Positions 1-44,787 of a stretch of DNA of 64,000 nt are shown in pieces. The DNA lies in assembly GCA_964637955.1 (NCBI GenBank), contig CAZWXQ010000004.1, forward strand, positions 11,368 through 75,367, given 5' to 3'. Every line of letters begins with the position of its first letter. Position 1 is the first letter of the stretch. This DNA comes from an uncultured Gammaproteobacteria bacterium (GTDB lineage Bacteria; Patescibacteriota; Microgenomatia; Levybacterales; UBA12049). Both the position numbers and the translations under genes were made by a program. The notes under the pieces are model-generated. The model was not told the origin of the DNA and made no database searches. It was given only the letters and a program-made list of their open reading frames with translations.

Positions 1-220
1 CGCTCCTCTATTCTTAGCATTACTGTCTACAGAAAAAGTAAATGCTTTATCAAGTAAGTTTCTATCGTGAGTTTTAGCGAGTTTAATATACAATCCTCTG
101 TGCTTATAATCATCCAACTCTTCAGCCAAATGCATTCCATATGCCTGAAACTCTCGCGAAATATGCTTATCTACCTTAGGGTCATATTTTTCTAAAATGG
201 AACCAATTTTTTTCACTAAA
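1..220 (-). CDS. Hypothetical protein, partial (runs off the window edge). Likely GTG start at 220.
   Basis: Open frame on the minus strand from a GTG at 218-220 to the window edge. Translation VKKIGSILEKYDPKVDKHISREFQAYGMHLAEELDDYKHRGLYIKLAKTHDRNLL. No family recognised. Confidence 0.3.
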
Positions 221-232
221 TTATTATATCAA

Positions 233-1057
233 TTAAACTCCTGGAGTTGGAGCTTGAGGTGCAAGCGGAGTGCTGGAAGCAGGAGCTGCATCAACTTTAT
301 CTGGCTGTGAAAGATTAGGTTCGGCTTGATAAGTATTTGCATCTTGAGGAGCTTGCGCCTTCAGAACCAATTCTTCAGCATGATCGAGGGCGTACTGTAT
401 TTTGCGCTGAGCTAAATCCACCCATTCACCATCACTCTTTAGTTTACCCCGTGGATCACTGCCACCAATTTGCACACCTTCGCTATTGGGTCCAGACTGA
501 ATAACTGAAAATAAATCAACATCGCGATTATCTACATTACTAACCCTTAATGCAAGCCGACCCCCCAGCTTCCCTAAAATCAATTCATAACCTTCTGGTA
601 GGCTCGGGTCTGTAATTCTAACCCCATCAAATAATCCAGTAAAACCAGGCTTAGGGTCACCATCTGGCACCATTCTACCAGAGGGATCTTTTTTGTAGCT
701 TTGAAAACGGGTGTCATGAGTCGATACTTTAATTGTGCCGTCTTCTGGAGTAGTAAATTCTCCAATGCGATTCTGATGCTCTCTTACTACATGAGAAGCA
801 ACTCTTCCGCTTATCTCTGCTGGGCTTAAATAACCATCTTGAAGCTCTCTACCAGTTCTGTCTATACTAGAAATAATATATCCCGCTCCTCGTCCAAATG
901 GCTGCGTAACAGGAAATTTCTTGGGATCCAATGCTTGCACTAGCTTTCCTCCCAAATCGTAAACAGCATCAAGTTGAGCTGAAACCTCCCTTTCTCTAAG
1001 AACAACACCTTGCTCTGTACGAGCAACAATTTGCTTAACCTCTTCTAGTCTCGCCAA
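233..1057 (-). CDS. Hypothetical protein of 274 aa. Noticeably more GC-rich than its neighbours.
   Basis: Long ORF. Gly/Asp/Pro-rich sequence with no motif I can assign. Estimated about 45% GC by eye against about 35% for flanking genes. Confidence 0.5.
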   Translation of the reverse strand: MARLEEVKQIVARTEQGVVLREREVSAQLDAVYDLGGKLVQALDPKKFPVTQPFGRGAGYIISSIDRTGRELQDGYLSPAEISGRVASHVVREHQNRIGEFTTPEDGTIKVSTHDTRFQSYKKDPSGRMVPDGDPKPGFTGLFDGVRITDPSLPEGYELILGKLGGRLALRVSNVDNRDVDLFSVIQSGPNSEGVQIGGSDPRGKLKSDGEWVDLAQRKIQYALDHAEELVLKAQAPQDANTYQAEPNLSQPDKVDAAPASSTPLAPQAPTPGV

Positions 1058-3757: not shown

Positions 3758-5068
3758 TTAAAGTAAGCTTTCCTGCTCTACTTTTTCATCCCCTGAACTC
3801 TGCTTTGCAGAATCAATTTTTACTACACCAAATTCTCCATCATATCCTGGAGAAATGGAAATATTTCCATTTCTTACCTTGAGAATTGCATCTGCGATAT
3901 TTTTTCCTGCGACTTTTTCTATTTTATCAATCGGAGTTTTTAAAAGAATTTCAAACTCTGGAGCAATATTTTCAATCATATTTTCAAACATCGCAATTAC
4001 TTTCACGCTGGCTGGAGCCACATGCATCGTCTCAGCAATTATTTCATTTAGTGGAACCAGCTTTGCAAAAGGAGGATGATTCTTTGCAGGATCAGCGATC
4101 CATTTCACTCCACTCTTACCTGTATTCTCCGCTACTTTTTCAGGACTTTTCGCTAAGTCTTCAACCCGCTCCATTACCCCAATCGTTAAACCACGACCAC
4201 AAACAGGACAAGTAGTTCCCTTTAATTTGGTGTCTTCTGGGGAATAAACAATCTTACAATTCCTGTGTCCTGTGTAATGATATTTACCTTCTTCGGGATA
4301 AAATTCAATGGTATAAGCAATTCTATTTTCCCCACCTTTTCGCATAATTGCACGTTTTATATTTTCAAAGCTCAAATCCTCAAGCTCAAAAACTGTACTC
4401 TCTCTTCCCATTTTGATGGGACTATGTGAATCTGAAAATGAAAGAATCGAGCGTTTTTCAAGCTCTGGAATTCTCCAGTTCATAGCTGGATCTGAAGACA
4501 AACCCGTTTCAATTCCATAAATATACTTACTCATATCTCCAAAGCATTCATCTATGGAATCGAATCCTGACATAGAGCCATAAAGAGAAAACCAGGGTGT
4601 CCAAACGTGACAAGGAATAAGAAAACTTCGATCATCAATTTCCATTAACATTTCTAAAAGATCTGGAGGTTTTATGCCGACAATAGGTCTTCCATCTGAC
4701 CTCAGATTCGCTCCCCTTTTCTGCAAAGCAGAATTGAATTTTTCCGCAGTTTCAATATTGGGAACAAATAAAAGACAGTGAATTCTGTGGGCTTTTCCAG
4801 CCTGAGAATAAATACTACTTACTTCAACTGAAAGAATAAATTTCGGATCCAACTCATCAGTAGAATTTTTAAGTGAATAGACTCCATCTCCTGACTCCTG
4901 CAGATTACTTTTAATTTCACGAATCCACATTGGATGTGTCCAATCCCCTGTCGTTAAAAGCCTCATTCCTTTTTGGCGGGCGAACTTCTTCATCACAGAA
5001 AGAGTCATATTCTGAGAAACAGCGCGTGAGTATTTACTATGTAAATGCAGGTCTGCTATGACTTCCAC
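3758..5068 (-). CDS. PHP-domain metal-dependent nuclease, endonuclease Q-like (uncharacterised TIGR00375-type family)
   Basis: N-terminal IADLHLHSKYS (PHP His motif). C-terminal C-x20-CPVCG zinc-finger-like element. About 430 aa, matching the EndoQ architecture. Confidence 0.55.
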   Translation of the reverse strand: MEVIADLHLHSKYSRAVSQNMTLSVMKKFARQKGMRLLTTGDWTHPMWIREIKSNLQESGDGVYSLKNSTDELDPKFILSVEVSSIYSQAGKAHRIHCLLFVPNIETAEKFNSALQKRGANLRSDGRPIVGIKPPDLLEMLMEIDDRSFLIPCHVWTPWFSLYGSMSGFDSIDECFGDMSKYIYGIETGLSSDPAMNWRIPELEKRSILSFSDSHSPIKMGRESTVFELEDLSFENIKRAIMRKGGENRIAYTIEFYPEEGKYHYTGHRNCKIVYSPEDTKLKGTTCPVCGRGLTIGVMERVEDLAKSPEKVAENTGKSGVKWIADPAKNHPPFAKLVPLNEIIAETMHVAPASVKVIAMFENMIENIAPEFEILLKTPIDKIEKVAGKNIADAILKVRNGNISISPGYDGEFGVVKIDSAKQSSGDEKVEQESLL

Positions 5069-5072
5069 GAAG

Positions 5073-5528
5073 TCATTCTACCACAGGTTCTTGTTTTTTT
5101 GAGATATCTAAAACATCAAAAGGAGCTGTCATCTGACCTTCATATTCCTCATGAAGATCTGCTGCTCTATCTCGCAATTGTATTGGGGTAAATCCTGTTA
5201 ATTGTTTTACTTCATCTTCAATTCCTTGAAGATAATTTCTATACCTTTCAATTTTTCCATCAGCTAATTCAGTTACACTATTAGCACGTCTTACTCTTTC
5301 CCTACCCTCTTCATCAATGTAATCAATATGATCTGCTGCTTTCCAACTCTCTAGCAAGCTCCCAACTCTTCCGTTCTCAATACCTTTTAACTTATCTGAA
5401 AAATCAACTGCTGAAATTCCTAACCATGGTCCTATTCTTTGCTCGCCAACACTTATTCCCATAAACCATTCCATTGGTGGTTGAACTACTTCTGCTTCTC
5501 TCTGAGGACTTGTATCCGGACTTGTCAT
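5073..5528 (-). CDS. Hypothetical protein, in an operon with the PHP nuclease
   Basis: 151-aa ORF ending 5 nt upstream of the PHP gene start. Confidence 0.45.
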   Translation of the reverse strand: MTSPDTSPQREAEVVQPPMEWFMGISVGEQRIGPWLGISAVDFSDKLKGIENGRVGSLLESWKAADHIDYIDEEGRERVRRANSVTELADGKIERYRNYLQGIEDEVKQLTGFTPIQLRDRAADLHEEYEGQMTAPFDVLDISKKQEPVVE

Positions 5529-5568: not shown

Positions 5569-5904
5569 TTATGTTGAAGTAGATCTTTTACCCTCCCTGA
5601 TGCCATCTTTTATTTGTGTGAGTCTCATTCTTCTTGCAATGCTCATTCCAGCCTCAAATCTAGCTAATCTCTGCGCTTCTTTTTGCCTAGCACTTTCTAT
5701 TCTCAGCCTTTCTCTAGTTCTTAAAAGTGCATCATTTTCCTGCTGAGTTGGAATTGATGTAGCATTTACCAAGCTTGGCTTCTGAAATCTTGCTTTTAAA
5801 TTTCCTATCCAACCACTTTTGCTCGATTCAATCTTTGGGATCTGTAGTGTTGGCTTATTATCAACTGTTACTTGAGGAACACCTTCAAACGTTGCGTCGG
5901 TCAT
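5569..5904 (-). CDS. Hypothetical protein
   Basis: 111-aa ORF. Basic, with a predicted coiled region. Confidence 0.4.
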   Translation of the reverse strand: MTDATFEGVPQVTVDNKPTLQIPKIESSKSGWIGNLKARFQKPSLVNATSIPTQQENDALLRTRERLRIESARQKEAQRLARFEAGMSIARRMRLTQIKDGIREGKRSTST

Positions 5905-8160: not shown

Positions 8161-9888
8161 TTACTTTTTCTTAACATATTGTAATTCAAACAATCTCTTA
8201 ATCTCATCAACTGTTGTGGATTGTTCAGCTCTCTTATCTGCATCTCGGAAAGAGACTAATCTAGGAAATCTGAGTGCAAAACCGTTTTCTGTTTCTGATT
8301 TACCTGCAGTATGAAGAGGTGAACGAGTAATTTCATCTGCTAAGACTTCTATAACAATCTTGGGCTCAATCCAGACGCTTGGCTCAATCATGGAATTAAC
8401 CCTGGCTGGTTTGTGATTTACTTTAATCTTATCTGCCCTCGCGTGGATTTCCCTCCATTCATCATCAGTTAGACCTGTACCAATGCGAGAAATCGAAACA
8501 AACTCATCACGATCTCTGTCATAAACTCCCACAAGAAGTGCTCCTGCACCAAACTCCGTCCTCTTCCCTTTTCCTACGATGTAGCCTAAGAGAACGCAAT
8601 CAATGGTATCAGAAAGTTCTCCATCAGAATGCTTTTTAAGTTTTACCCAATTAAAATTTCTTCCACCCGCTTCGTATGGGCTTTGGAGTTTTTTGATAAC
8701 CAAACCTTCAAGGCCTTTACTTATCGCGTCATCGAGAAGTCCCTGCAAAATCTTCGGATCTGTCACTGTCTGATTTTTTGTCCTGATCAAAATATCATCT
8801 TCGGGAAGAACTTTATCTAGAATTTTCATGCGCTCTGTAAGTGGTTTATCAAGAAGCTGTTCTCCATCTTTATAGAGAATGTCAAAAACAAAAGCCTTTA
8901 GAGGAAGAGCTTTTTGCGCCTCTTCAATTCCATGTTTTCTTCGTCTTTTTGTAGTCTCCTGGAATGGCAAAAATTCTTCAGACTCTGGATTATAAGCTAG
9001 GGCTTCTGAATCTAGAATTATAGTTTTGGCTTTAATTTGCTTAAGAGTTCCTTCGATTAATTCCGGAAACATATGTGTCATTTCCTCTAGATTTCTACTA
9101 AACATTCTCACCTTATCTCCATCTTTATGAATCTGAACTCTAAATCCATCATATTTATACTGGACATCTACCTCTACCATTTTCTCAATCACTTTTTCAG
9201 GATTTGGAAGACGCTCACAAAGCTCAGATCTGATAGGATTTCCAAGTCTTACTTCGAGTTTGTCTACGGCAGGTAAACCTTTTACCCATAAAGTTTTTGC
9301 AATTAATCCTAGATCAGAAGTTCTGTTATATGCGCCTTCAAGATTTTTTCTATTGGATTTATCACCAAGCTTTGCCGTAGCTAGAGCATCCAGAATCGTC
9401 GGATCTCCAATCCCAAGTCTCGTATTTCCAAGTGGAATTCTGACAAGATGCTTTGCAGAAACACCGTCGACTTTAGAGAGCAAACCAGAAAGTAATGTTT
9501 GTCTTTTTTCAACTGTTCCCTCTCCACTGGTATTGGCGATTTGAGTAAGTATTTCAAAAACTTCAGATACTGTTATATTTGAGGATTTAGAATTACTAAG
9601 TTCTTGTGCTGCTTTTCCCATATCGCCCAATTTATTAAAAAGTGCCAATACTTTTTCTTTATCACTTCCATATGCAATAGCAATAGAACCAGCAACATTC
9701 TTCTCTGCCATTCCAATTTCAATAGGAGCAAAGAAAGGAGCAATGCGACCTTGAATCAAATAAACAATCTCTTCTATTTCATCATTTGGAGTTTTTTTAA
9801 AAAGCTCTGACAATATTTCAATAAGAGACAAACGCGACGATGTCGCTTCTAACTTTTCTAGATACTGCGAGAATTCACTAAATTTCAT
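8161..9888 (-). CDS. lig: ATP-dependent DNA ligase (Lig1/LigB-like)
   Basis: KYDGFRVQIH contains the KxDGxR adenylation motif I. 575 aa. Strong RBS GAGGAG upstream. Confidence 0.9.
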   Translation of the reverse strand: MKFSEFSQYLEKLEATSSRLSLIEILSELFKKTPNDEIEEIVYLIQGRIAPFFAPIEIGMAEKNVAGSIAIAYGSDKEKVLALFNKLGDMGKAAQELSNSKSSNITVSEVFEILTQIANTSGEGTVEKRQTLLSGLLSKVDGVSAKHLVRIPLGNTRLGIGDPTILDALATAKLGDKSNRKNLEGAYNRTSDLGLIAKTLWVKGLPAVDKLEVRLGNPIRSELCERLPNPEKVIEKMVEVDVQYKYDGFRVQIHKDGDKVRMFSRNLEEMTHMFPELIEGTLKQIKAKTIILDSEALAYNPESEEFLPFQETTKRRRKHGIEEAQKALPLKAFVFDILYKDGEQLLDKPLTERMKILDKVLPEDDILIRTKNQTVTDPKILQGLLDDAISKGLEGLVIKKLQSPYEAGGRNFNWVKLKKHSDGELSDTIDCVLLGYIVGKGKRTEFGAGALLVGVYDRDRDEFVSISRIGTGLTDDEWREIHARADKIKVNHKPARVNSMIEPSVWIEPKIVIEVLADEITRSPLHTAGKSETENGFALRFPRLVSFRDADKRAEQSTTVDEIKRLFELQYVKKK

Positions 9889-34266: not shown

Positions 34267-34285
34267 GACTTCGCCTGAGCCATTG

Positions 34286-34359
34286 TACCAGGGGTGGGAG
34301 TCGAACCCACGACCTTAGGTTTATGAATCCTATGCTCTAACCAACTGAGCTACCCTGGC
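34286..34359 (-). tRNA. tRNA with anticodon CAT (Met or lysidine-Ile2). CCA is not encoded.
   Basis: Hand-folded cloverleaf: GCCAGGG / TA / GCTC-AGTTGGTTA-GAGC / TAGGA-TTCATAA-ACCTA / AGGTC / GTGGG-TTCGACT-CCCAC / CCCTGGT-A. G1-U72 wobble. Confidence 0.8.
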
Positions 34360-35056
34360 GTGCTAGTCCTTCGATTAATCCTATTATTTTATAATAAATA
34401 CGTGCCGGTTTACTAACTTTAACAGACAAAGTTCCATAATGTTCATTGAAATTATCGTAAATTTTCTTACTTTTTACCTTTTTAAAACTAGTTTTCGTGA
34501 ATTGATCTAATGGAATTCCTGTCATCTCAGACCAATAATATTTAACTAACTGTTCTCTTTTACGATGGGTTTCATTAATTCCAACATAACACCTCATTTG
34601 AGAAATTGGAATTCCAAAGCACGTTTGCAACCAAATCAGGAAGAATTTTATCATTTTAGGATCAGAGTTGCAAAGTTCTATTTTGCGAGTTTTCTTGCTT
34701 CCTTCTCCCCAATACAAAGCTAAACCCGCAATTAATAACTCTCTCTCGGTCATTCCTGAAAGATATTTTAAACCATCTATTCTTGACTCTTGAATTAATT
34801 TTAATCGTCGATTTTTTTGCTCCAATGCGTTTCTTAAACGACCTAATTCTGCACCTTTAATTTTTGATTTTCTCAATTCTTCTAATTGCTCTACGGAAAG
34901 CACAATATCTCTAACCCAAATACTTACTGTGCTTTTTGAAATCTGAAGTTCAGAAGCAATTTTTTTAACGCTTAATCCATTTTTTCTTAATTTTCTAGCC
35001 TCTAATTTAAGTAATGATTTCGCCATCGAACCTACAATATATAATAGTATTAACAC
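34337..35056 (-). CDS. HTH plus LAGLIDADG-like (single-motif) homing-endonuclease-family protein. Its 3' end overlaps the tRNA 5' end by about 22 nt.
   Basis: N-terminal HTH (KLRKNGLSVKKIASELQISKSTVSIWVRDI). LLIAGLALYWGEGSKK resembles the LAGLIDADG motif with its catalytic acidic residue. Confidence 0.45.
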   Translation of the reverse strand: MLILLYIVGSMAKSLLKLEARKLRKNGLSVKKIASELQISKSTVSIWVRDIVLSVEQLEELRKSKIKGAELGRLRNALEQKNRRLKLIQESRIDGLKYLSGMTERELLIAGLALYWGEGSKKTRKIELCNSDPKMIKFFLIWLQTCFGIPISQMRCYVGINETHRKREQLVKYYWSEMTGIPLDQFTKTSFKKVKSKKIYDNFNEHYGTLSVKVSKPARIYYKIIGLIEGLARQGSSVG

Positions 35057-35108: not shown

Positions 35109-35114
35109 TGAACG

Positions 35115-35440
35115 CGCGGGGTAGTGTACAGTGCACGTGAGGCTTAATTTAATGGGCCGTTTTGATAGTAATACCAAAAATGAACTCAGCTATTTCGGTG
35201 AACTCCTAAATTTTATTAAGGACAATACCGAGGGAAGACTCGCTTAGGCGAGAACCCGTAGAGACTACACGCTGGGCTCCTAAGCAATCAAGGATTTATA
35301 CAAAGCTTGCCAAAGGATGAAGATATAGTCCGACACTCTGAGTAATCGGAGATAACAGATAGCATAATCTCACAGGCTAGGCGCAACTCCTAGCCCCGCA
35401 ACAAATTTAATGGAGGCATCAAGCCTCCATTTTCTTTAAT
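35115..35440 (+). ncRNA. Candidate structured non-coding RNA of about 320 nt (class unknown), or a long regulated leader
   Basis: A 450-bp gene-free region carries a consensus promoter, several stable hairpins (ctcgc-ttag-gcgag, ggctagg-cgcaact-cctagcc) and an intrinsic terminator. It may contain a 31-codon small ORF (MGRFDSNTKNELSYFGELLNFIKDNTEGRLA). Confidence 0.35.
35412..35440 (+). terminator. Intrinsic terminator: ggaggc-atcaa-gcctcc followed by a T-run
   Basis: ggaggcatcaagcctccattttcttt on the plus strand. Confidence 0.6.
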
Positions 35441-37974: not shown

Positions 37975-38835
37975 ATGAATCCGATTACATTGGCGAAGGC
38001 CAGTTCAGAGTTTAAGAATTTTCTTAAAGAAAAGGGTCATTCGACCTCAACTATTGTAGCATACGGCAAAGATATTGAGCAGCTCGTAGACTTTTTAAAC
38101 AAGGCTGGAAAACAAAATGTAGATGAAGTAACTCAACAAGACATTGAGGGATTTCTCGCGAAAATGAACGAGGAAGGATACACTCCTAAGTCAATTTCAA
38201 GAAAAATCAACTCAACAAGAACTTTCTACAGATTCCTTAAAAGTAACGGCTATGTTAAAGAAGATCCTTCCCTTCTCGTTGCACACCCAAAGTATCAACT
38301 CGCTCCACCTAGAATCCTTACTCCTACCGAATACAGAGCGCTAAGAGATGCAGCAAGAAATGATGCAAGAATGAGTGCAATCATCGAACTTCTACTTCAG
38401 ACAGGTATAAGGATCGGAGAACTTACCGCTCTAAGACTCTCAGACATCCATAAAGACTCACTTCATGTTCCAGCTATGGAAAAGCACGAAGAAAGAAGTG
38501 TACCCCTTAATAAAAGAGCTCAGGAAGCTTTAAATAAGTATCTAGAAGTGCGCCCTAAGGTAGAAGAAGATCATTTATTTATCACAAAAAGCGGAAAACC
38601 ATTCTTAATCAGAAACATCAGAACTAGTATCGAGAGATATTTTAGACTCGCTGAAATAAAAGATGCTAAAGTAAATGATCTTAGACATACATTTGTAGCC
38701 CACCACCTAAAACACGGAGCTTCAATAGTAACTCTCTCTAAAATCCTAGGACACAAGAGAATCTCAACAACTGAAAGATATCTCGAATACGTTCCAGATA
38801 GAGCTTCAGAATCCCAAGTCCTCTCAGAACTATAA
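37975..38835 (+). CDS. xerD: Tyrosine site-specific recombinase, XerC/XerD-like
   Basis: N-terminal SAM-like core-binding domain. The C-terminal domain carries R...HxxR...Y (DLRHTFVAHHLKHG...TTERYLEY). Confidence 0.85.
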   Translation: MNPITLAKASSEFKNFLKEKGHSTSTIVAYGKDIEQLVDFLNKAGKQNVDEVTQQDIEGFLAKMNEEGYTPKSISRKINSTRTFYRFLKSNGYVKEDPSLLVAHPKYQLAPPRILTPTEYRALRDAARNDARMSAIIELLLQTGIRIGELTALRLSDIHKDSLHVPAMEKHEERSVPLNKRAQEALNKYLEVRPKVEEDHLFITKSGKPFLIRNIRTSIERYFRLAEIKDAKVNDLRHTFVAHHLKHGASIVTLSKILGHKRISTTERYLEYVPDRASESQVLSEL

Positions 38836-38844
38836 ACTTTATTC

Positions 38845-39438
38845 ATGCCTACAGAATCTCCAAAGCATCCAATTGTAATCATTCCTGAGGCTACTTCTAA
38901 ACCTTCAGGCAATCTAAGTATGTTCACTCCTATGGGCGAGGGGCTTTATGGCTTTGAAGCTACAGAGCATGATCCGATTGTCGAAGCTCCAATAACAAGC
39001 GCTGAAGGCGGAACATTATATTTTGGTAACGAAATAAAGAAGGAAGAACTTCTGGCATTAACAAACATAATGGGAATCAGAACTAATCCTAATACTCAAA
39101 AATACATTATTTATGAAATGCAGTCAGATAATTCAATTTCAGATCGTTATCTTCTACAATGGAGATTCGTATCTGATTTTGCGAGTAAATATTTATTCAG
39201 AGATGATGCACCAGATGCGATTCCTGTCCAACCCTTCTCTATTCCAGAAGCAATGTGGAAATTTATAGAAGGTGAAAAAATAAAGTATGGCACGATGTTT
39301 GGAAATCCAGCAATAGCAGGAAAGCTTGGAGGAAATGGCTATTCATTGCAAGAAGAATTAGCTTTCGGAGTAACAGTTGAAAACCCTTATTACGGAGTTT
39401 ATAGAATTTGGAGCAGACCTTGGCTTGTTGGAAAATAG
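38845..39438 (+). CDS. Hypothetical protein
   Basis: 197-aa ORF. Confidence 0.5.
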   Translation: MPTESPKHPIVIIPEATSKPSGNLSMFTPMGEGLYGFEATEHDPIVEAPITSAEGGTLYFGNEIKKEELLALTNIMGIRTNPNTQKYIIYEMQSDNSISDRYLLQWRFVSDFASKYLFRDDAPDAIPVQPFSIPEAMWKFIEGEKIKYGTMFGNPAIAGKLGGNGYSLQEELAFGVTVENPYYGVYRIWSRPWLVGK

Positions 39439-39439
39439 T

Positions 39440-39511
39440 GGGCTAGCTTGGATTTGAACCAAGGACATCTACTTTATAAGAGCCCCGATTTAATCGGGGC
39501 CGCTGAGCTAC
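39440..39511 (-). pseudogene. Degenerate tRNA-like chimera. It has a T-arm plus acceptor 3' half and an anticodon-like hairpin, but no 5' acceptor strand and no D-stem 3' half.
   Basis: Minus strand GTAGCTCAGCGG-CCCCGATTAAATCGGGG-CTCTTATAAAGTAGATGTC-CTTGGTTCAAATCCAAG-CTAGCCCA. It shares two blocks with the neighbouring tRNA (GTAGCTCAGCGG and CTCTTATAAAGTAGATGTC). Confidence 0.4.
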
Positions 39512-39586
39512 TGGTGGGTTAGGATGGAGTCGGACCATCGACATCTACTTTATAAGAGTAGCGCTCTACCGCTGAGCTACTAACCC
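39512..39586 (-). tRNA. tRNA with anticodon TAT (Ile-UAU). CCA is encoded.
   Basis: GGGTTAG-TA-GCTC-AGCGGTA-GAGC-G-CTACT-CTTATAA-AGTAG-ATGTC-GATGG-TCCGACT-CCATC-CTAACCC-A-CCA. Acceptor, anticodon and T stems are fully paired. The T-loop is unusual (UCCGACU). Confidence 0.7.
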
Positions 39587-39831
39587 AAATTCTTACTAAT
39601 TAACCATTCTATATATTTTTTACTTTTATAACTTTTAAGCTTTCTTTCTCTTTTTAAAACTTCTGATTTTGTTTCAAATTTCTCTGTGTAAACTAGCTTA
39701 TCTGTTTTTAAAATCCTAGTAGTTCTAGTCTTACCAATTAGATGCTGATTTAATCTTTGATCTAAATCACCAGTTGATCCAATATAATATCTCCCGGTCT
39801 CTTCATTCTTCAGAATGTATAACCAAAACAT
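39580..39831 (-). CDS. GIY-YIG nuclease family protein (small, YhbQ/UPF0213-like)
   Basis: MFWLYILKNEETGRYYIGSTGDLDQRLNQH is the GIY-YIG catalytic motif. Overlaps the tRNA 5' end by 7 nt. Confidence 0.75.
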   Translation of the reverse strand: MFWLYILKNEETGRYYIGSTGDLDQRLNQHLIGKTRTTRILKTDKLVYTEKFETKSEVLKRERKLKSYKSKKYIEWLISKNLG

Positions 39832-39917
39832 CTAGCTGAGTGAATGTAATTATAACATTTATTATTTCATGCTTAAAGTTTGACAATTAACCTCGTTTTA
39901 TGGTTTAATCACGCCTT

Positions 39918-40412
39918 ATGATCGAATTTGAGGAAGCTTTTGGCACTGACAAACCAAAAATAATTACTCCACGCATGACAGAGCCATTTACATTTAAGGA
40001 TGGCTATACTGTTGATGAAACGCGAGAGAAATTACTTACTGAACTCAAGACTAGATTAATTAAAGTAAGTCCAGATATCACCACTGGGCAAATGGCATGC
40101 TCGATTCAAGATACCCTGGAATTATCTGACGAAGAATTTAGAATAATAATTCCTGAAGGATCAAGCGATGATCATATTACTGATTCTTTTGTAAGAATAT
40201 GGTACATGGCTTCTGTTTATCCTGAAAAAACATTTGCGCAAGAAATGAGAGTTAAACATAATCACCAATCTTACGAGACAACTGAACCAGCTTCACATTT
40301 GGAGTTAATATTAACAGAAGGAATGAATCCTGTATTAATGGAGCACTATAAAATCTTCAGAGGAGATCATTTTTCTAAAGCTGAGCCCGCTCCCCTATTA
40401 CCTGCAAGATAA
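39918..40412 (+). CDS. Hypothetical protein
   Basis: 164-aa ORF. An extended -35 (TTGACAATTAAC) lies upstream. Confidence 0.5.
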   Translation: MIEFEEAFGTDKPKIITPRMTEPFTFKDGYTVDETREKLLTELKTRLIKVSPDITTGQMACSIQDTLELSDEEFRIIIPEGSSDDHITDSFVRIWYMASVYPEKTFAQEMRVKHNHQSYETTEPASHLELILTEGMNPVLMEHYKIFRGDHFSKAEPAPLLPAR

Positions 40413-40468: not shown

Positions 40469-42433
40469 ATGATTGAAAAAGGTCTTCAACCTATATTTGA
40501 CGCCAATGAAGGCAATGGTTCTTTTGGCAAACCTGGAGGCATATCTGACGACGATAGTTATGGTGCTTATGAAAGAGACAAATCCATACCTATTCCTGTT
40601 GTTGTCGATGAAAGACCAGCGCTTGATAGAATTATTGCAGAACTTGATCAGGAAAGAAGAGGTCGATTTCGTCCGACCTATCCAGTATCTCCAATAGAAG
40701 AACCTAAGATTTTTCCCCCAGACACTAAAGAACCAAAGTACTTAGAAGGGTTTAATTCAGGTATAACAGGAGCAAGATTAAAAGTTGCAGGTGTTGATAT
40801 TGCAAGAACAACGATATTTAATCCCCTATCGAGAAACGAGTATGCAGGTGGGACAGAACTTACCCAGGAAGGTATAGAAAAAATTAAACAGTTTTTAAAA
40901 GACAAGGGCTACAGTAATGATGCGCTTGAATATTTAAGTGAGACAGGGGTTTTTGGAAGTATTTTTGCAAACTTAGTACTTAGAACAGAGTCTAATCAAA
41001 TAATAGAAGCAATAAACAATACTGACTTTAAATCTTCAAAAAGAAATTCCTCCGGTTACTATGACTCTATTGAGCCATATTTAGGCTTCTCATATCAAAA
41101 TGAAGCTATAGATGCAAGCATACCGTCTAGTGATAGCAAAAATGACGATCAAAGAAGATTATCAAGAAAAGGTGCGACCAGACTTTTCAGAATAGGCACA
41201 CCTAGAGTTTTAGAAAACTATAAAGTAGCTGATACGCCTATTGTTATTATCGGAGGAGGACCAGCAGGACTTCTTACTGCAAATGCTTTAGTAGATTTAG
41301 GATTCGCTTCTCATAATATTACAGTTCTAGATAAATCGGGTGATTTTGGTGGAATTTGGAAGCAGAAAAATGTTGCGGGAGGATCCAAGAATAATCCTTT
41401 TGACATTAATTTTAGTGGAATCAGGATTGATGCCGCACCAGGTCCCGGATCTTCAATAAGCATCTTTCTTAGGGATATCGCAAAACGTATGGAAAGAAAT
41501 AATGAAGAGGTAGGAGTAGTAAAAGGAAAGGTTACCAGAATAACACCTGGTGATTTAAATCATACAGTGCATTACATAGATGAATCCGGCACTGAAACAA
41601 CTCTAGAAGCTCCGATTGTAATTAACGCTATCGGAAATGGAAAGCCATTACCTCCAAATAGAGAAGGCTATATGACAACTCCAATTAAAGATGGTCAAGC
41701 AGGAATCAGATGGCAGCAAATAATTACTCCTGAAAAAGCTGAAGAATTTAGCGGCAAAACAGTAGTTTTTGTAGGACTTGGAAATAGTACTGCAGAAATG
41801 ATGCAGCAAATTGAAGATTATAATAAATTAGGATACGGCATAAACTACCGCGTTTTAACACACTACCCCTATGAAGCCATTCAAAATCCAGACTCTTTAG
41901 TTAGAATGCCTGATGGAAGAGAATTTAAAGTATTCAGAGACATAAAAACTCCAAATCTAACTAAATTTGAAGGAGATTTACCTGAAATGAGAACTGTTTA
42001 TGATGCTGCTGTAAGAAAAGGAAGAATAATTTCTGATGTAGTCAATTGGGATGTTAAAGACAAATCAATAGTAGCTAGAACTAAAGACGGCACAGAAATA
42101 ACTATTCCGTTTGCACAGCTTTATACTTTAATTGGCTACAGACAAGATCCTGAAGCTCTTAGAGCCATGGGGATGACAGTGGTTGATGAATATACAGGCG
42201 AGATTGCTTATGATTATGACGGTGAGATTCAAAGAAAGCCAGGAGAAGTTGGAAGGAAAAGAGTGCATCCTGGCTACTTCGGTATCGGAGCAGTTCTTAA
42301 ATCACCTTCAAATCCAAATGCAGAAGTAATACCTGGAATTCAACATAGACTTTATGATTTACTTTTTGGAGTAATTATGAGATCAGCTGAATCTGCTGCA
42401 AGAAAAGAAAAACCTCAGAAAAAAAGACGCTAA
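40469..42433 (+). CDS. FAD/NAD(P)-binding oxidoreductase (flavin-monooxygenase-like, two Rossmann motifs) with an uncharacterised N-terminal extension of about 230 aa
   Basis: IVIIGGGPAGLLTANAL (GxGxxG) and VVFVGLGNSTAEMMQQI (second dinucleotide-binding motif). Confidence 0.55.
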   Translation: MIEKGLQPIFDANEGNGSFGKPGGISDDDSYGAYERDKSIPIPVVVDERPALDRIIAELDQERRGRFRPTYPVSPIEEPKIFPPDTKEPKYLEGFNSGITGARLKVAGVDIARTTIFNPLSRNEYAGGTELTQEGIEKIKQFLKDKGYSNDALEYLSETGVFGSIFANLVLRTESNQIIEAINNTDFKSSKRNSSGYYDSIEPYLGFSYQNEAIDASIPSSDSKNDDQRRLSRKGATRLFRIGTPRVLENYKVADTPIVIIGGGPAGLLTANALVDLGFASHNITVLDKSGDFGGIWKQKNVAGGSKNNPFDINFSGIRIDAAPGPGSSISIFLRDIAKRMERNNEEVGVVKGKVTRITPGDLNHTVHYIDESGTETTLEAPIVINAIGNGKPLPPNREGYMTTPIKDGQAGIRWQQIITPEKAEEFSGKTVVFVGLGNSTAEMMQQIEDYNKLGYGINYRVLTHYPYEAIQNPDSLVRMPDGREFKVFRDIKTPNLTKFEGDLPEMRTVYDAAVRKGRIISDVVNWDVKDKSIVARTKDGTEITIPFAQLYTLIGYRQDPEALRAMGMTVVDEYTGEIAYDYDGEIQRKPGEVGRKRVHPGYFGIGAVLKSPSNPNAEVIPGIQHRLYDLLFGVIMRSAESAARKEKPQKKRR

Positions 42434-44787
42434 AGTTGAGCTCTCTCCCCTATTACCTGCTCAATAACGTTTACGTCTTTTCCATACTTAAGACGAGACA
42501 ATTCTTTAATAAGTTCTGAAACTCTTGGATTCATCGCTGCTTTTTCTGCTGTCATGTCTTTAGTCGTATCAAGAGAAAAAGGCGGAACCGGTTCGCCATT
42601 TACGACTGAGCGCATATAGCAATTGAAGCGATCAATGTTTATAAGATCTGACTCATTAAACGTCGGCTGGAACTCGTGCTGAAGATAATTTGCATCTGTA
42701 ACTCCAACACGAAATGAGGCTAGCGTACCCACATTTCCGAAAATAGCATTCTTAACCTCTTCTTCCATCTGCCCTATAAACTGATTGGCAACAATTAGAT
42801 CAAGACGATATTTTCTAGCCTCTGAAAGAATCTGGGCGAAGTCTGGAGTTGCGAAGTTTTGGAACTCGTCAACATAAAGATAAAAATCTTTTCTTTGATC
42901 CATAGCCATATTCTGTCTACTCATCGCAGCAATTAGAATTTTTGGAACTAGAATAAGACCTAAGAAACTTGAATTTTCTTCTCCAATTTTTCCTTTTGAA
43001 AGATTTATAAGTAAAATTTTCTGATTATCCATAACGTCTCTCATATTAAAAGCTGATTGAGATTGGCCTATGATATTTCTCATGGTTTTGTTAGTAACAA
43101 ATCTTCCAAATTTGGATACGATATAATCCAAAGTTTCAGACTTATGAAAATCTGATGTCTGTGCAATCTGATCTGTCCAATAACGTCTAACGATCGGATC
43201 CTGAACGAGAGGAAGCAAACTTTGAACAAACTTTGAATCAGTAAGAACTCTAACAACCTCAATAAATGTACTTCCAGGCTGATACATAACTGTAAGCATC
43301 GCGTTTCTGATCGCATGCTCAAAACGAGGTCCGATAATGCCAGTTTTATTCGGATCATAAAGCTTATACATAAGCCCAACTATACTGGAAACCACATAAT
43401 GCTTTTCTTCCTCAGTATCTGCCTCGAGCATGTTCACTCCCATTGGCCTAGATGTGTCTGAAGGATCAAACAGAATTACATCCTCTGCTCTTTCCGGTGG
43501 AATTTGTTGCAAAATATCTTCGATTAAATCTCCGTGAGGATCAATTACGCCAACACCCTTTCCATTTTTTATATCCTGATTTATCATTTGCTTAAGAAAC
43601 TCTGTTTTTCCAGTTCCTGTTTTTCCGATGATATACATATGCCTTCTTCTGTCATCGTCCCCAATAAATACTTCTTTGGAAAGTCCTCTATATGAACTCT
43701 TGCCCAGAAACAATCCCTCGGTAGCTATATTTGCAGCCGCAGGAGCACGCTTAGAGTTAACCCAGAAAATGTTTGGGGTTGTGATTGCTTTATTTGGGAA
43801 GTGAAAAAGAGTAGCCAGTTCTTCAGAATTTAAAACTCCGGTGTGTGATTTCTTAGGCATAAATCTGTAAACAAACTCATCCATAAATGCCTTTTTATTT
43901 CTAAGTTTATTTTGAGTAAACTCATTCAAGCCTTCGAACTGAGCAAAATTATGCTCTATATTATTTAAATGTGCCTCTGCAGACTCATGTGTAGTTGAAG
44001 AGACCACAATTCTAATTACAGCATCAAATCCAGGTTTTCCGATTTTACTTTCAATTCCTTCCAGCTCTTTTGGATCAACGGAATATTTTGCGGTTTCAGG
44101 ATTTGATTCATCTTTTTTCGTGTGAGAGATATGTGCTCTCCCTGCTTTTTTCCAATCTGAACCCGCTCCTGTAATTGCAATCTGAATTGCTGCTCCCTCC
44201 CCCTCTGTCATCTTTGCAAGAGTTGAAGTAATAGAGCTCATTGGGTCTGTTGCTAAATCTTTATAAACTTTAAGAGGTTTAAAATTTTCCTCCTTAAGCC
44301 TTAATGAAGCAAAAGCGACATGTGAATTCTGTGCAAAAATATTGTAATCATTTCCAACCACAAATCCCTCTTTAAGAGATTTTTTTTCGCTAACTTCTGT
44401 AATTTCAGCATCAGGATAAGCTCCGTTTATTTGTTTTTCTACGAAATCTTTATATTTATTTGGAGTGGAAACATAGTATCTGATATCTCCTGGCATTCCC
44501 ACAATTTCAAAAGTCATCGTAGGCTCTGCATGCATAAAAGAGAATCTGCCACCACCATGAACTGCAACAAAACTTGAGAATAATTGCTCTGCTGCATCAA
44601 TTTTTATTTCATTATCACGAGGCAAAGCTATTTGAAGAAGAGTAGAATCAAGCGCAGCTTCTTTGCTTACTTTAAATTTATAGTTTTGCATAAAAAAATA
44701 AACAGCAACACTACCCACTACTGCCAGAAGAGCAGAAAAAGTTGCCAAGAAAATTAAGAAAACTATAATAGCTAATATATCTCCCAT
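42430..44787 (-). CDS. Membrane-anchored P-loop ATPase of the FtsK/HerA/VirD4-VirB4 (type IV secretion or DNA-translocation) superfamily
   Basis: N-terminal TM helix. Walker A IIGKTGTGKTEF followed by VIDPHGDL. Walker B LYVDEFQNF. RKYRLDLIVANQ. 785 aa. Confidence 0.6.
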   Translation of the reverse strand: MGDILAIIVFLIFLATFSALLAVVGSVAVYFFMQNYKFKVSKEAALDSTLLQIALPRDNEIKIDAAEQLFSSFVAVHGGGRFSFMHAEPTMTFEIVGMPGDIRYYVSTPNKYKDFVEKQINGAYPDAEITEVSEKKSLKEGFVVGNDYNIFAQNSHVAFASLRLKEENFKPLKVYKDLATDPMSSITSTLAKMTEGEGAAIQIAITGAGSDWKKAGRAHISHTKKDESNPETAKYSVDPKELEGIESKIGKPGFDAVIRIVVSSTTHESAEAHLNNIEHNFAQFEGLNEFTQNKLRNKKAFMDEFVYRFMPKKSHTGVLNSEELATLFHFPNKAITTPNIFWVNSKRAPAAANIATEGLFLGKSSYRGLSKEVFIGDDDRRRHMYIIGKTGTGKTEFLKQMINQDIKNGKGVGVIDPHGDLIEDILQQIPPERAEDVILFDPSDTSRPMGVNMLEADTEEEKHYVVSSIVGLMYKLYDPNKTGIIGPRFEHAIRNAMLTVMYQPGSTFIEVVRVLTDSKFVQSLLPLVQDPIVRRYWTDQIAQTSDFHKSETLDYIVSKFGRFVTNKTMRNIIGQSQSAFNMRDVMDNQKILLINLSKGKIGEENSSFLGLILVPKILIAAMSRQNMAMDQRKDFYLYVDEFQNFATPDFAQILSEARKYRLDLIVANQFIGQMEEEVKNAIFGNVGTLASFRVGVTDANYLQHEFQPTFNESDLINIDRFNCYMRSVVNGEPVPPFSLDTTKDMTAEKAAMNPRVSELIKELSRLKYGKDVNVIEQVIGERAQL

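Follow-up and report, generated by a model that had tools for sequence, protein, structure and literature searches.

Locus organisation: an intact tRNA gene and an abutting tRNA-like fragment

We analysed a 64,000-nucleotide stretch of contig CAZWXQ010000004.1 (GenBank assembly GCA_964637955.1, positions 11,368 to 75,367), hereafter the window, in which a gene for tRNA-Ile(UAU), an open reading frame (ORF) for a small GIY-YIG nuclease overlapping its 5' end and a tRNA-like fragment abutting its 3' end lie side by side on the minus strand. The tRNA gene (39512-39586) was intact: ARAGORN called a single tRNA-Ile there with the anticodon TAT, Rfam scored it at 70.3 bits over 39515-39586, the CCA end was encoded, the acceptor stem (GGGTTAG/CTAACCC) was self-consistent and the minimum-energy fold was a clean cloverleaf. 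The T loop of tRNA-Ile(UAU), in the window (39526-39532) as well as in L016, L018, L019, L024 and others (L numbers are our handles for the sequences compared), reads TCCGACT or TCCGAAT. It therefore has, in the window and in many Microgenomates, a C where the near-universal T55 is expected.

Directly behind the CCA, with a spacer of 0 nucleotides (nt), begins a fragment of 73 nt (39439-39511). ARAGORN, Rfam and the sequence itself thus agreed with a preliminary description of this DNA, which had reported an intact tRNA(UAU) with CCA and a tRNA-like stretch abutting it; the limits given there (72 nt, start 39440) were nearly right and are corrected here by one position. Read from 39511 to 39439, the fragment is composed of GTAGCTCAGCGG-CCCCGATTAAATCGGGG-CTCTTATAAAGTAGATGTC-CTTGGTTCAAATCCAAG-CTAGCCCA, i.e. 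in tRNA numbering positions 7-19, a 17-nt palindrome in place of positions 20-29, positions 30-48, a canonical T arm, and the 3' acceptor strand with the discriminator (position 73), with neither CCA nor 5' acceptor strand. The palindrome (CCCCGATTAAATCGGGG, 39483-39499) had been taken for an anticodon-like hairpin; it is a stem of 7 base pairs (bp) with a 3-nt loop (RNA fold of -9.9 kcal/mol) and not an anticodon arm, and it occurs once in the window. The two tRNA copies are in register with an offset of 76 nt, and the 19-nt block that they share has two exact copies within the 64 kilobases (kb) of the window, against 0.03 expected.

The fragment reached 16.1 bits on the Rfam tRNA model (gathering score 29) and was not called by ARAGORN, which saw one tRNA at this place and not two normal ones. 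As positions 1-6 and 20-29 are missing, the acceptor stem, D arm and anticodon stem are incomplete; the T arm and the acceptor strand of the 3' side alone are intact. The whole 148-nt arrangement and both its flanks were base-for-base identical in L001 and L003, two independent assemblies from two other sequencing runs.

The fragment matches another tRNA-Ile(UAU) allele

Over its 3' part, the fragment matched the intact allele of L009/L010 (metagenome-assembled genome CAYZEE01) at 43 of 44 positions, compared with 36 of 44 for the adjacent window tRNA. The 3' parts of the two window copies differ at 8 of 25 positions, and the differences in the T stem are compensatory. The earlier suggestion of a recombined tRNA fragment is borne out in that the stretch is non-functional and derived by recombination. 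Moreover, its acceptor strand CTAGCCC complements the GGGCTAG of a stranded tRNA-Ile 5' fragment found in L121 at the same locus, just downstream of the VirD4-like gene described below. From this pairing, the window and L121 each seem to have retained one half of a single ancestral gene, the two halves being complementary and separated by inserted material.

Concerning the matching allele, the contigs L009 and L010 end and begin inside the same tRNA-Ile(UAU) gene, with an overlap of about 55 nt, and L010 begins exactly at position 7, the same breakpoint as in the window fragment. This break could be an assembly-graph branch caused by cassette polymorphism.

A minimal GIY-YIG nuclease gene running into the tRNA

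The ORF overlapping the tRNA (39580-39831, minus strand) encodes 83 amino acids (aa) and consists of a GIY-YIG catalytic domain only (Pfam PF01541, E=3.8e-16), which spans residues 1-73; no other domain was found with Pfam or NCBIfam. The nearest solved structures in a PDB search were 1YWL (E=2.6e-6) and 1ZG2 (E=2e-5), and the match to the NCBIfam intron-endonuclease model was 24 bits against a cut-off of 56. Close homologues (n=231, 60-78 % identity) came in many cases from short contigs. In an alignment of 52 homologues, Y5, Y16, G18, R26 and H30 were invariant and E62 nearly so, and no invariant Asn was found behind E62. Similarity to solved members, the minimal single domain and the lack of a conserved C-terminal Asn place the protein in the Slx1-like/UPF0213 type. 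The gene is thus an intact nuclease ORF with conserved catalytic residues, as in a homing cassette; the sequence-specific DNA-binding module of a homing endonuclease is not attached to its catalytic domain.

The ORF ends in AAT TTG GGT TAG, its last sense codons and stop falling in tRNA positions 1-7 and the TAG stop itself being positions 5-7. Immediately before its ATG, a -10-like box TTATAAT (39855-39849) and the pentamer GCTAG (39836-39832) could be read on the minus strand (39832-39855 overall). The box may represent the promoter of the native tRNA and the pentamer its positions 3-7; between the box and the presumed position 1 there are 10 nt, compared with 8-10 nt in alleles without the ORF. 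If this reading is real, the suggestion, carried by five bases, would be an insertion of the unit behind native position 7, accompanied by a duplication of 2 nt (AG). A strict scan for sigma-70 promoters and terminators found no promoter, nor a terminator at the fragment.

A recurring cassette marked by a palindrome

Seven loci carrying close homologues of the GIY-YIG gene (62-76 % identity; L121, L129, L137, L145, L154, L156 and L159) were looked up. A tRNA gene adjoined the homologue in every one of them. The overlapping GIY-YIG gene, pointed out in the preliminary description, is indeed relevant. The tRNAs concerned were Ile-UAU (L121, L159), His (L129), Lys-UUU (L137, L156), Lys-CUU (L154) and Arg-UCU (L145), and the cassettes of L121 and L159 occupy the same locus as that of the window.

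All seven loci share one design: a tRNA promoter, a stranded 5' tRNA copy (position 1 to about 25-31), a few nucleotides, the ORF and an intact tRNA, which starts either inside the last codons of the ORF or 2 nt behind its stop. The D loop of each stranded 5' copy is split by the palindrome after TCAG or TCAA (TCAR), and this tetranucleotide is then repeated. The exact 17-mer CCCCGATTAAATCGGGG was also present in L129, L145 and L159, a loop-inverted form (CCCCGATTTAATCGGGG) in L154 and L156, a stem-compensated variant (CCCCGACTGAGTCGGGG) in L137 and nested copies in L121. Across about 0.9 Mb of related DNA, the palindrome core was confined to stranded tRNA fragments beside homologous GIY-YIG genes. 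Its sequence conservation, its occurrence in both loop orientations and the one compensatory stem change argue that it would be a functional cis element.

The same design could be read from the proteins. The read-through N-termini CSSAPIKSGS and VAQPRFNRGQW, seen in the family members P0012, P0025, P0063, P0111 and P0120, are the translated D arm plus palindrome, and the tails behind the conserved WLI motif (e.g. ..GR, ..GP, ..VAQR) are translated tRNA 5' ends, whose variation is expected with a different tRNA behind each ORF. Similarity between ORFs was independent of tRNA type, the Ile-linked ORF of L121 being closest (83 %) to the Lys-CUU-linked one of L154. In L121 and L156, foreign intact tRNAs stand beside native 5' remnants: the intact tRNA is unlike the stranded 5' piece over its whole length, is self-consistent, and therefore came with the ORF as a unit. 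That the intact tRNA might be a chimera, with positions 1-15 from the element and 16-73 native, was rejected, the tRNAs of L121 and L156 being self-consistent throughout.

More distant family members (28-50 % identity) were located directly behind tRNA 3' ends. In L020, tRNA-Phe is followed by the ORF and by a partial copy of that tRNA, whose anticodon arm is swapped for a hairpin of like design (TCCTCCGAATCGGAGGA). The palindrome-substituted tRNA form was not found in genome contigs, the 39 loci recovered all having gaps of 10-11 nt in a scan that allowed 10-17. Viral contigs, scanned for the palindrome within D-loop surroundings and for members of the protein family, gave unrelated or distant matches only and no sign of a phage-borne cassette. 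Within the 64-kb window and the roughly 0.9 Mb of related loci, the palindrome showed neither the dispersed copies nor the HUH transposase of REP/RAYT or IS200/IS605 systems, and no transposase domain was seen among the neighbouring ORFs with Pfam.

Three further arrangements involving such genes or hairpins were noted. In L073 (about 100-480, minus strand), inverted repeats (TCATTGCGAG...GTGGCAATCTA), and not tRNA pieces, stand on both sides of a more distant GIY-YIG ORF, so that a gene of this kind is packaged differently there. In L145/L148 (2821-2900 and 4795-4905), a repeated palindromic unit (TCGCTTCGYTCGGCACTAGC...GCTCAAAGCGTCGCGC) lies behind several tRNA genes. Finally, L148 carries a second GIY-YIG gene (4910-5164), followed by palindrome-like hairpins and then by a tRNA.

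Empty and occupied sites in related genomes

The body of the window tRNA (positions 7-48) was exactly common to 39 species-level genomes which, where named, belong to the Microgenomates or other Patescibacteria (Roizman-, Levy-, Woese- and Chisholmbacteria). On its left-hand side, the locus has as conserved neighbour a gene for a VirD4/TraG-like ATPase of 785 aa (42430-44787, minus strand; Pfam and NCBIfam), and on the other side a gene for a Xer-type tyrosine recombinase of 286 aa (37975-38835, plus strand; Pfam Phage_integrase and SAM-like domains), whose best NCBIfam matches were XerD/XerC, below the equivalog cut-offs. Full-length orthologues of this recombinase (46-87 % identity), convergent to tRNA-Ile(UAU), were present in at least 24 other Microgenomates loci, and DivIC adjoins the recombinase in the window, L121 and L159.

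In relatives, the VirD4-like gene ends 22-100 nt upstream of the tRNA and the recombinase gene lies 11-100 nt from it, several of these gaps being free of any insertion. Compact empty sites were found in L014, L016, L017, L039 and L040, with 22-71 nt between the end of the VirD4-like gene and the tRNA and 11-91 nt between the tRNA and the Xer gene. The ancestral layout in the class is the VirD4-like gene, tRNA-Ile(UAU) and the convergent Xer gene, within about 250 nt. In the window, the corresponding gaps are 2847 nt, containing the GIY-YIG ORF and two more ORFs (164 and 654 aa), and 680 nt, made up of the fragment and an ORF of 197 aa. Since cassettes occupy the site in the window, L121 and L159, their presence is polymorphic at an orthologous site.

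The two sister genomes L121 and L159 were especially informative. Their flanking proteins are 76-92 % identical to those of the window and the fillings differ, which makes the tRNA an insertion hot spot on both sides. The intact tRNAs at the locus are only 70-72 % identical among the window, L121 and L159, compared with 86-92 % for the proteins of the flanking genes and about 77 % for the flanking DNA; this is far below what is expected for orthologous tRNAs between such genomes and indicates allele replacement. A foreign copy has thus taken the place of the host segment and a native remnant has been left. The 73-nt fragment itself was in no other genome compared, including both sister genomes at this locus, so that the chimera is not conserved, a possibility that the preliminary description had wished to see settled by comparing relatives.

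The gap between fragment and recombinase is filled by the 197-aa ORF (38845-39438, plus strand), whose stop codon adjoins the fragment. Eight homologues were found, sharing the C-terminus VYRIWSRPWLV.K; the closest (50 % identity) has the same recombinase-plus-ORF pair, and in a metagenome scan no tRNA was found downstream of the family at 74 other loci. This ORF is lineage-specific cargo of the hot spot. On the other side, a 38-nt direct repeat (84 % identity; 40375-40412 and 42430-42467) brackets the 654-aa gene, which is FAD-oxidoreductase-like; one copy is the antisense of the VirD4-like gene 3' end, the other the C-terminus of the 164-aa ORF. The repeat suggests that the 654-aa gene may have been inserted with a target duplication.

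Leftovers of tRNA-Ile 3' ends were also seen in L012 (2043-2100, minus strand), L021 (3740-3800, plus strand) and L043 (212-265, plus strand). They start in the anticodon loop, 27-60 nt downstream of an intact tRNA-Ile, and those of L012 and L021 are each preceded by a different hairpin.

Interpretation and rival explanations

We consider that the fragment is probably the remnant of the original tRNA-Ile(UAU), left after a selfish cassette consisting of the GIY-YIG ORF and its own tRNA had settled in the gene. More generally, the best reading of the data is a homing-type cassette with an Slx1-like GIY-YIG nuclease, which colonises tRNA genes and supplies a replacement tRNA, the nuclease activity and the role of the palindrome being the parts that we infer. 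Presence or absence at an orthologous site, fusion of ORF and tRNA, heterologous alleles and a family-specific palindrome are all directly visible in the genomes. For this window, the fragment is a pseudogene scar and the adjoining recombinase is a housekeeping Xer-type gene, not the integrase of an island.

The strongest competitor, although an unlikely one, is a local tandem duplication, in which a 76-bp unit (tRNA positions 7-76) was copied, decayed and received a palindromic insertion independently, the GIY-YIG gene being unrelated. It would account for the exact 76-nt offset in register, for the identity of blocks 7-19 and 30-48 and for a junction lying exactly between CCA and G7. These blocks, however, are invariant across 39 species anyway, and random decay would not recreate a perfect canonical T arm through compensatory changes, nor bring T arm and acceptor to 43 of 44 matches with a natural allele; furthermore, the palindrome is tied to the GIY-YIG ORF family in all seven other loci. 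Another view would see in the fragment a functional tRNA-like RNA, e.g. one that ends the transcript of the tRNA or of the convergent 197-aa gene, as a terminator or 3'-end structure, or that acts as a processing decoy. Its fold is stable (-22.2 kcal/mol, z=-2.5); in it, the palindrome stem reaches 9 bp and the T arm is intact. The fragment is also undecayed relative to a natural allele, and arrangements of a hairpin plus a 3' fragment recur downstream of tRNA genes in L012, L020 and L021. We nevertheless regard this view as improbable: the fragment is absent from the other genomes compared, the two sisters at the locus included, no U tract follows either hairpin and the terminator scan did not pick it up, and aminoacylation is impossible for a molecule with neither 5' acceptor strand nor anticodon stem.

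An att-site scar or recombined tRNA fragment next to a tyrosine recombinase was what the preliminary description had proposed. The scar of a mobile element is retained here; the att site and the recombinase as its agent are not. In a full integrase account, an element using the adjacent tyrosine recombinase would have crossed over in the anticodon-loop block CTCTTATAAAGTAGATGTC, the 3' half of the tRNA would have been replaced and most of the element deleted, leaving attL and attR side by side. The anticodon loop is a classic crossover site of tRNA-targeting integrases and is covered by the 19-nt identical block, the recombinase gene, pointing towards the tRNA, is separated from the fragment by 604 nt, and heterologous 3' halves are what an element and its host would contribute. 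Yet what the two copies have in common is the 5' and middle blocks, and their divergence lies in the 3' part, the opposite of an integrase-made attL/attR pair, which disfavours this account; nor do they bound an island with a tRNA 3' repeat identical from crossover to end, since they abut. The recombinase is no part of an inserted element either, being present at empty sites, next to tRNA-Ile(UAU) genes without interruption in at least 24 genomes, and adjoined by DivIC in three. Neither the distal fragment, expected as the other att site, nor the 19-nt core or the tRNA 3' end had a further att-like copy elsewhere in the 64 kb. The D-arm piece and the palindrome would be left unexplained, and the palindrome recurs with GIY-YIG genes at His, Lys and Arg tRNAs with no such recombinase nearby. 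An att scar thus seems slightly less probable still than a functional RNA. As for an assembly artefact from collapsed or mis-joined tRNA alleles, the short contig L002 does break inside the tRNA; given that L001 and L003 reproduce the arrangement and that the repeats, of 12 and 19 nt, are below assembler k-mers, it hardly deserves consideration.

Several observations weigh against a cassette origin of the fragment. The window leftover lies downstream of the tRNA, whereas the norm of the family is upstream of the ORF, and its palindrome replaces positions 20-29 instead of following position 15 with a TCAR duplication; a search of the window for the expected native 5' end gave no clear 5' leftover before the ORF. 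The 3' tRNA-Ile leftovers of L012, L021 and L043 are present without any GIY-YIG gene, so that at this hot spot tRNA alleles can be replaced, or the replacement can endure, in the absence of the ORF. The conservation of blocks 7-19 and 30-48 extends over the whole class, and they are uninformative on the age of the event. With no recognised DNA-binding domain in the 83-aa protein, the choice of target would remain unexplained; cleavage of the ORF-less allele at or near the insertion site is a prediction from family membership and from the recurring D-loop junctions.

Proposed mechanism

In the mechanism that we propose, the nuclease would break tRNA genes free of the ORF, either by homing, as does SegB of phage T4, or by structure-specific cutting, as would an Slx1-type enzyme. 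Repair would then copy in the ORF together with the replacement tRNA segment. With a replacement tRNA supplied, the host would lose nothing and could not easily lose the cassette. In the usual layout, transcription of the ORF would start at the tRNA promoter, and RNase P would cut ORF and tRNA apart; for an ORF whose stop codon falls within the tRNA, as in the window, this cut would take the stop away. The junctions seen (6/7, 15/16, 19/20, 25-31 and 43/44) all fall at loops or helix ends, and the recognition of a cloverleaf-forming or palindromic DNA structure would be a reasonable idea. The palindrome could, more speculatively, serve to disable the leftover, to split homology that could delete the ORF, or as the structured substrate of the nuclease.

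We advance more tentatively, and with some doubt, a wider view, namely that the GIY-YIG gene and the 17-bp palindrome represent an unrecognised class of autonomous bacterial mobile elements living inside tRNA genes. Such an element would enter the D loop at TCAR with a 4-nt duplication, be expressed from the tRNA promoter and be released by tRNA processing; always accompanied by a working tRNA, it would be harmless and hard to lose, and would drive a rapid turnover of tRNA alleles across the Patescibacteria. The read-through peptides of distant members suggest that it may do so in other lineages too.

If true, this would reveal a compact selfish element, widespread in bacteria whose genomes are among the most reduced known, and would give the enigmatic stand-alone Slx1-like GIY-YIG proteins a concrete setting, i.e. 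tRNA genes. It would explain why 'orthologous' tRNA genes are much more divergent than the genes around them, why assemblies are interrupted at these tRNAs, and why some GIY-YIG gene calls have odd N- or C-terminal extensions, which would be translated tRNA and palindrome. It would also offer a testable system both for target finding by a nuclease with no DNA-binding domain and for the contribution of the 17-bp palindrome to mobility or persistence.

Other features at tRNA genes

Other features were noted at further tRNA genes of the window. A group I intron (71.9 bits, Rfam 35135-35352) was located in the anticodon loop of an apparent initiator tRNA-fMet (35114-35400, plus strand) that ARAGORN missed; the split tRNA has the acceptor CGCGGGG/CCCCGCA, a C1:A72 mismatch and the anticodon CAT, and its signature of intron plus 3' exon is shared by L015 and L034. 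Group I introns were described in tRNA genes of Patescibacteria in 2026 (PMC13011429). An ORF of 229-239 aa (34337-35056, minus strand), which has an HTH at its N-terminus and contains the motif LAGLALYWGEGSK, extends over the first 23 nt of a tRNA-Met (34285-34359, minus strand). Its tail ..SSVG* is the translated D arm, and it represents the second fusion of an ORF into a tRNA in this window. A LAGLIDADG-like motif in this ORF found no confirmation as a domain in Pfam or PDB. Outside the window, L054 contains three orphan fragments made of T arm plus acceptor (4196-4212, 5816-5832 and 9403-9419), two of which have an identical 60-nt lead-in (..aagtatatcctttaggatataatcgtttacaccgag..), which suggests that another element may duplicate tRNA 3' ends.

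Comparison with known systems

A close parallel is found in the mobile endonuclease ORFs (mORFs) of fungal mitochondria (Allomyces macrogynus atp6; Glomus atp6, atp9, cox2 and nad3), free-standing endonuclease ORFs, some of them GIY-YIG, that reside in essential genes (PMC3630166). They bring a foreign replacement for the displaced part of the gene, and the native part stays as an unexpressed duplicate, which is closer to the gene of relatives than the inserted copy is (PMC3630166). An endonuclease ORF inserted in an essential gene, a foreign replacement and a native remnant are thus common to both. In mORFs, however, the host gene is protein-coding and only its C-terminal part is replaced, whereas here it is a tRNA gene and the whole tRNA or its 5' part is supplied; moreover, the ORF is here a bare 83-aa catalytic domain, the remnant bears a 17-bp palindrome and the setting is a bacterial chromosome and not an organelle.

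SegB of phage T4 is a free-standing GIY-YIG homing endonuclease encoded in a tRNA gene cluster, where it co-converts neighbouring tRNA genes (PMC2330249). A GIY-YIG nuclease gene among tRNA genes is found in both cases, but the protein studied here belongs to the Slx1-like branch and not to the I-TevI/Seg branch. SegB is larger, has a DNA-binding region and lies between phage tRNA genes; it is not known to leave partial tRNA copies or a palindrome.

Integrative elements that target tRNA genes use a tyrosine integrase and restore only the 3' part of the tRNA from their own copy; the displaced fragment comes to lie at the opposite end of an island of kilobase size. As in those elements, the tRNA is here restored by a copy of the element's own and a native segment is kept as a partial direct repeat. 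In contrast, the recombinase is here a resident, the canonical leftover is the 5' part and lies within 20-50 nt of the ORF, and the 'island' may be as small as one ORF of 250 nt.

The prokaryotic Slx1-like/UPF0213 group of stand-alone GIY-YIG proteins has been described as mostly vertically inherited, with a predicted role in repair (Dunin-Horkawicz et al. 2006, PMC1564403). The proteins found here resemble it in minimal size, GIY-YIG motifs, absence of an auxiliary domain and lack of a conserved C-terminal Asn; unlike the described members, they behave as mobile, tRNA-embedded genes with presence/absence polymorphism.

A short conserved palindrome beside a fixed tetranucleotide (TCAA/TCAG) also recalls REP/RAYT and the hairpin elements of the IS200/IS605 family. 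Here, unlike in these systems, no HUH transposase was seen and the palindrome is not dispersed, with one copy in 64 kb and cassette contexts only. It is also flanked by a 4-nt duplication, which IS200/IS605 elements are not known to make. A literature search, limited to one paper library, found no published description of GIY-YIG genes in bacterial tRNA genes with palindrome-marked leftovers. The window fragment itself is an ordinary scar, and it is the cassette family revealed by it that is the interesting part.

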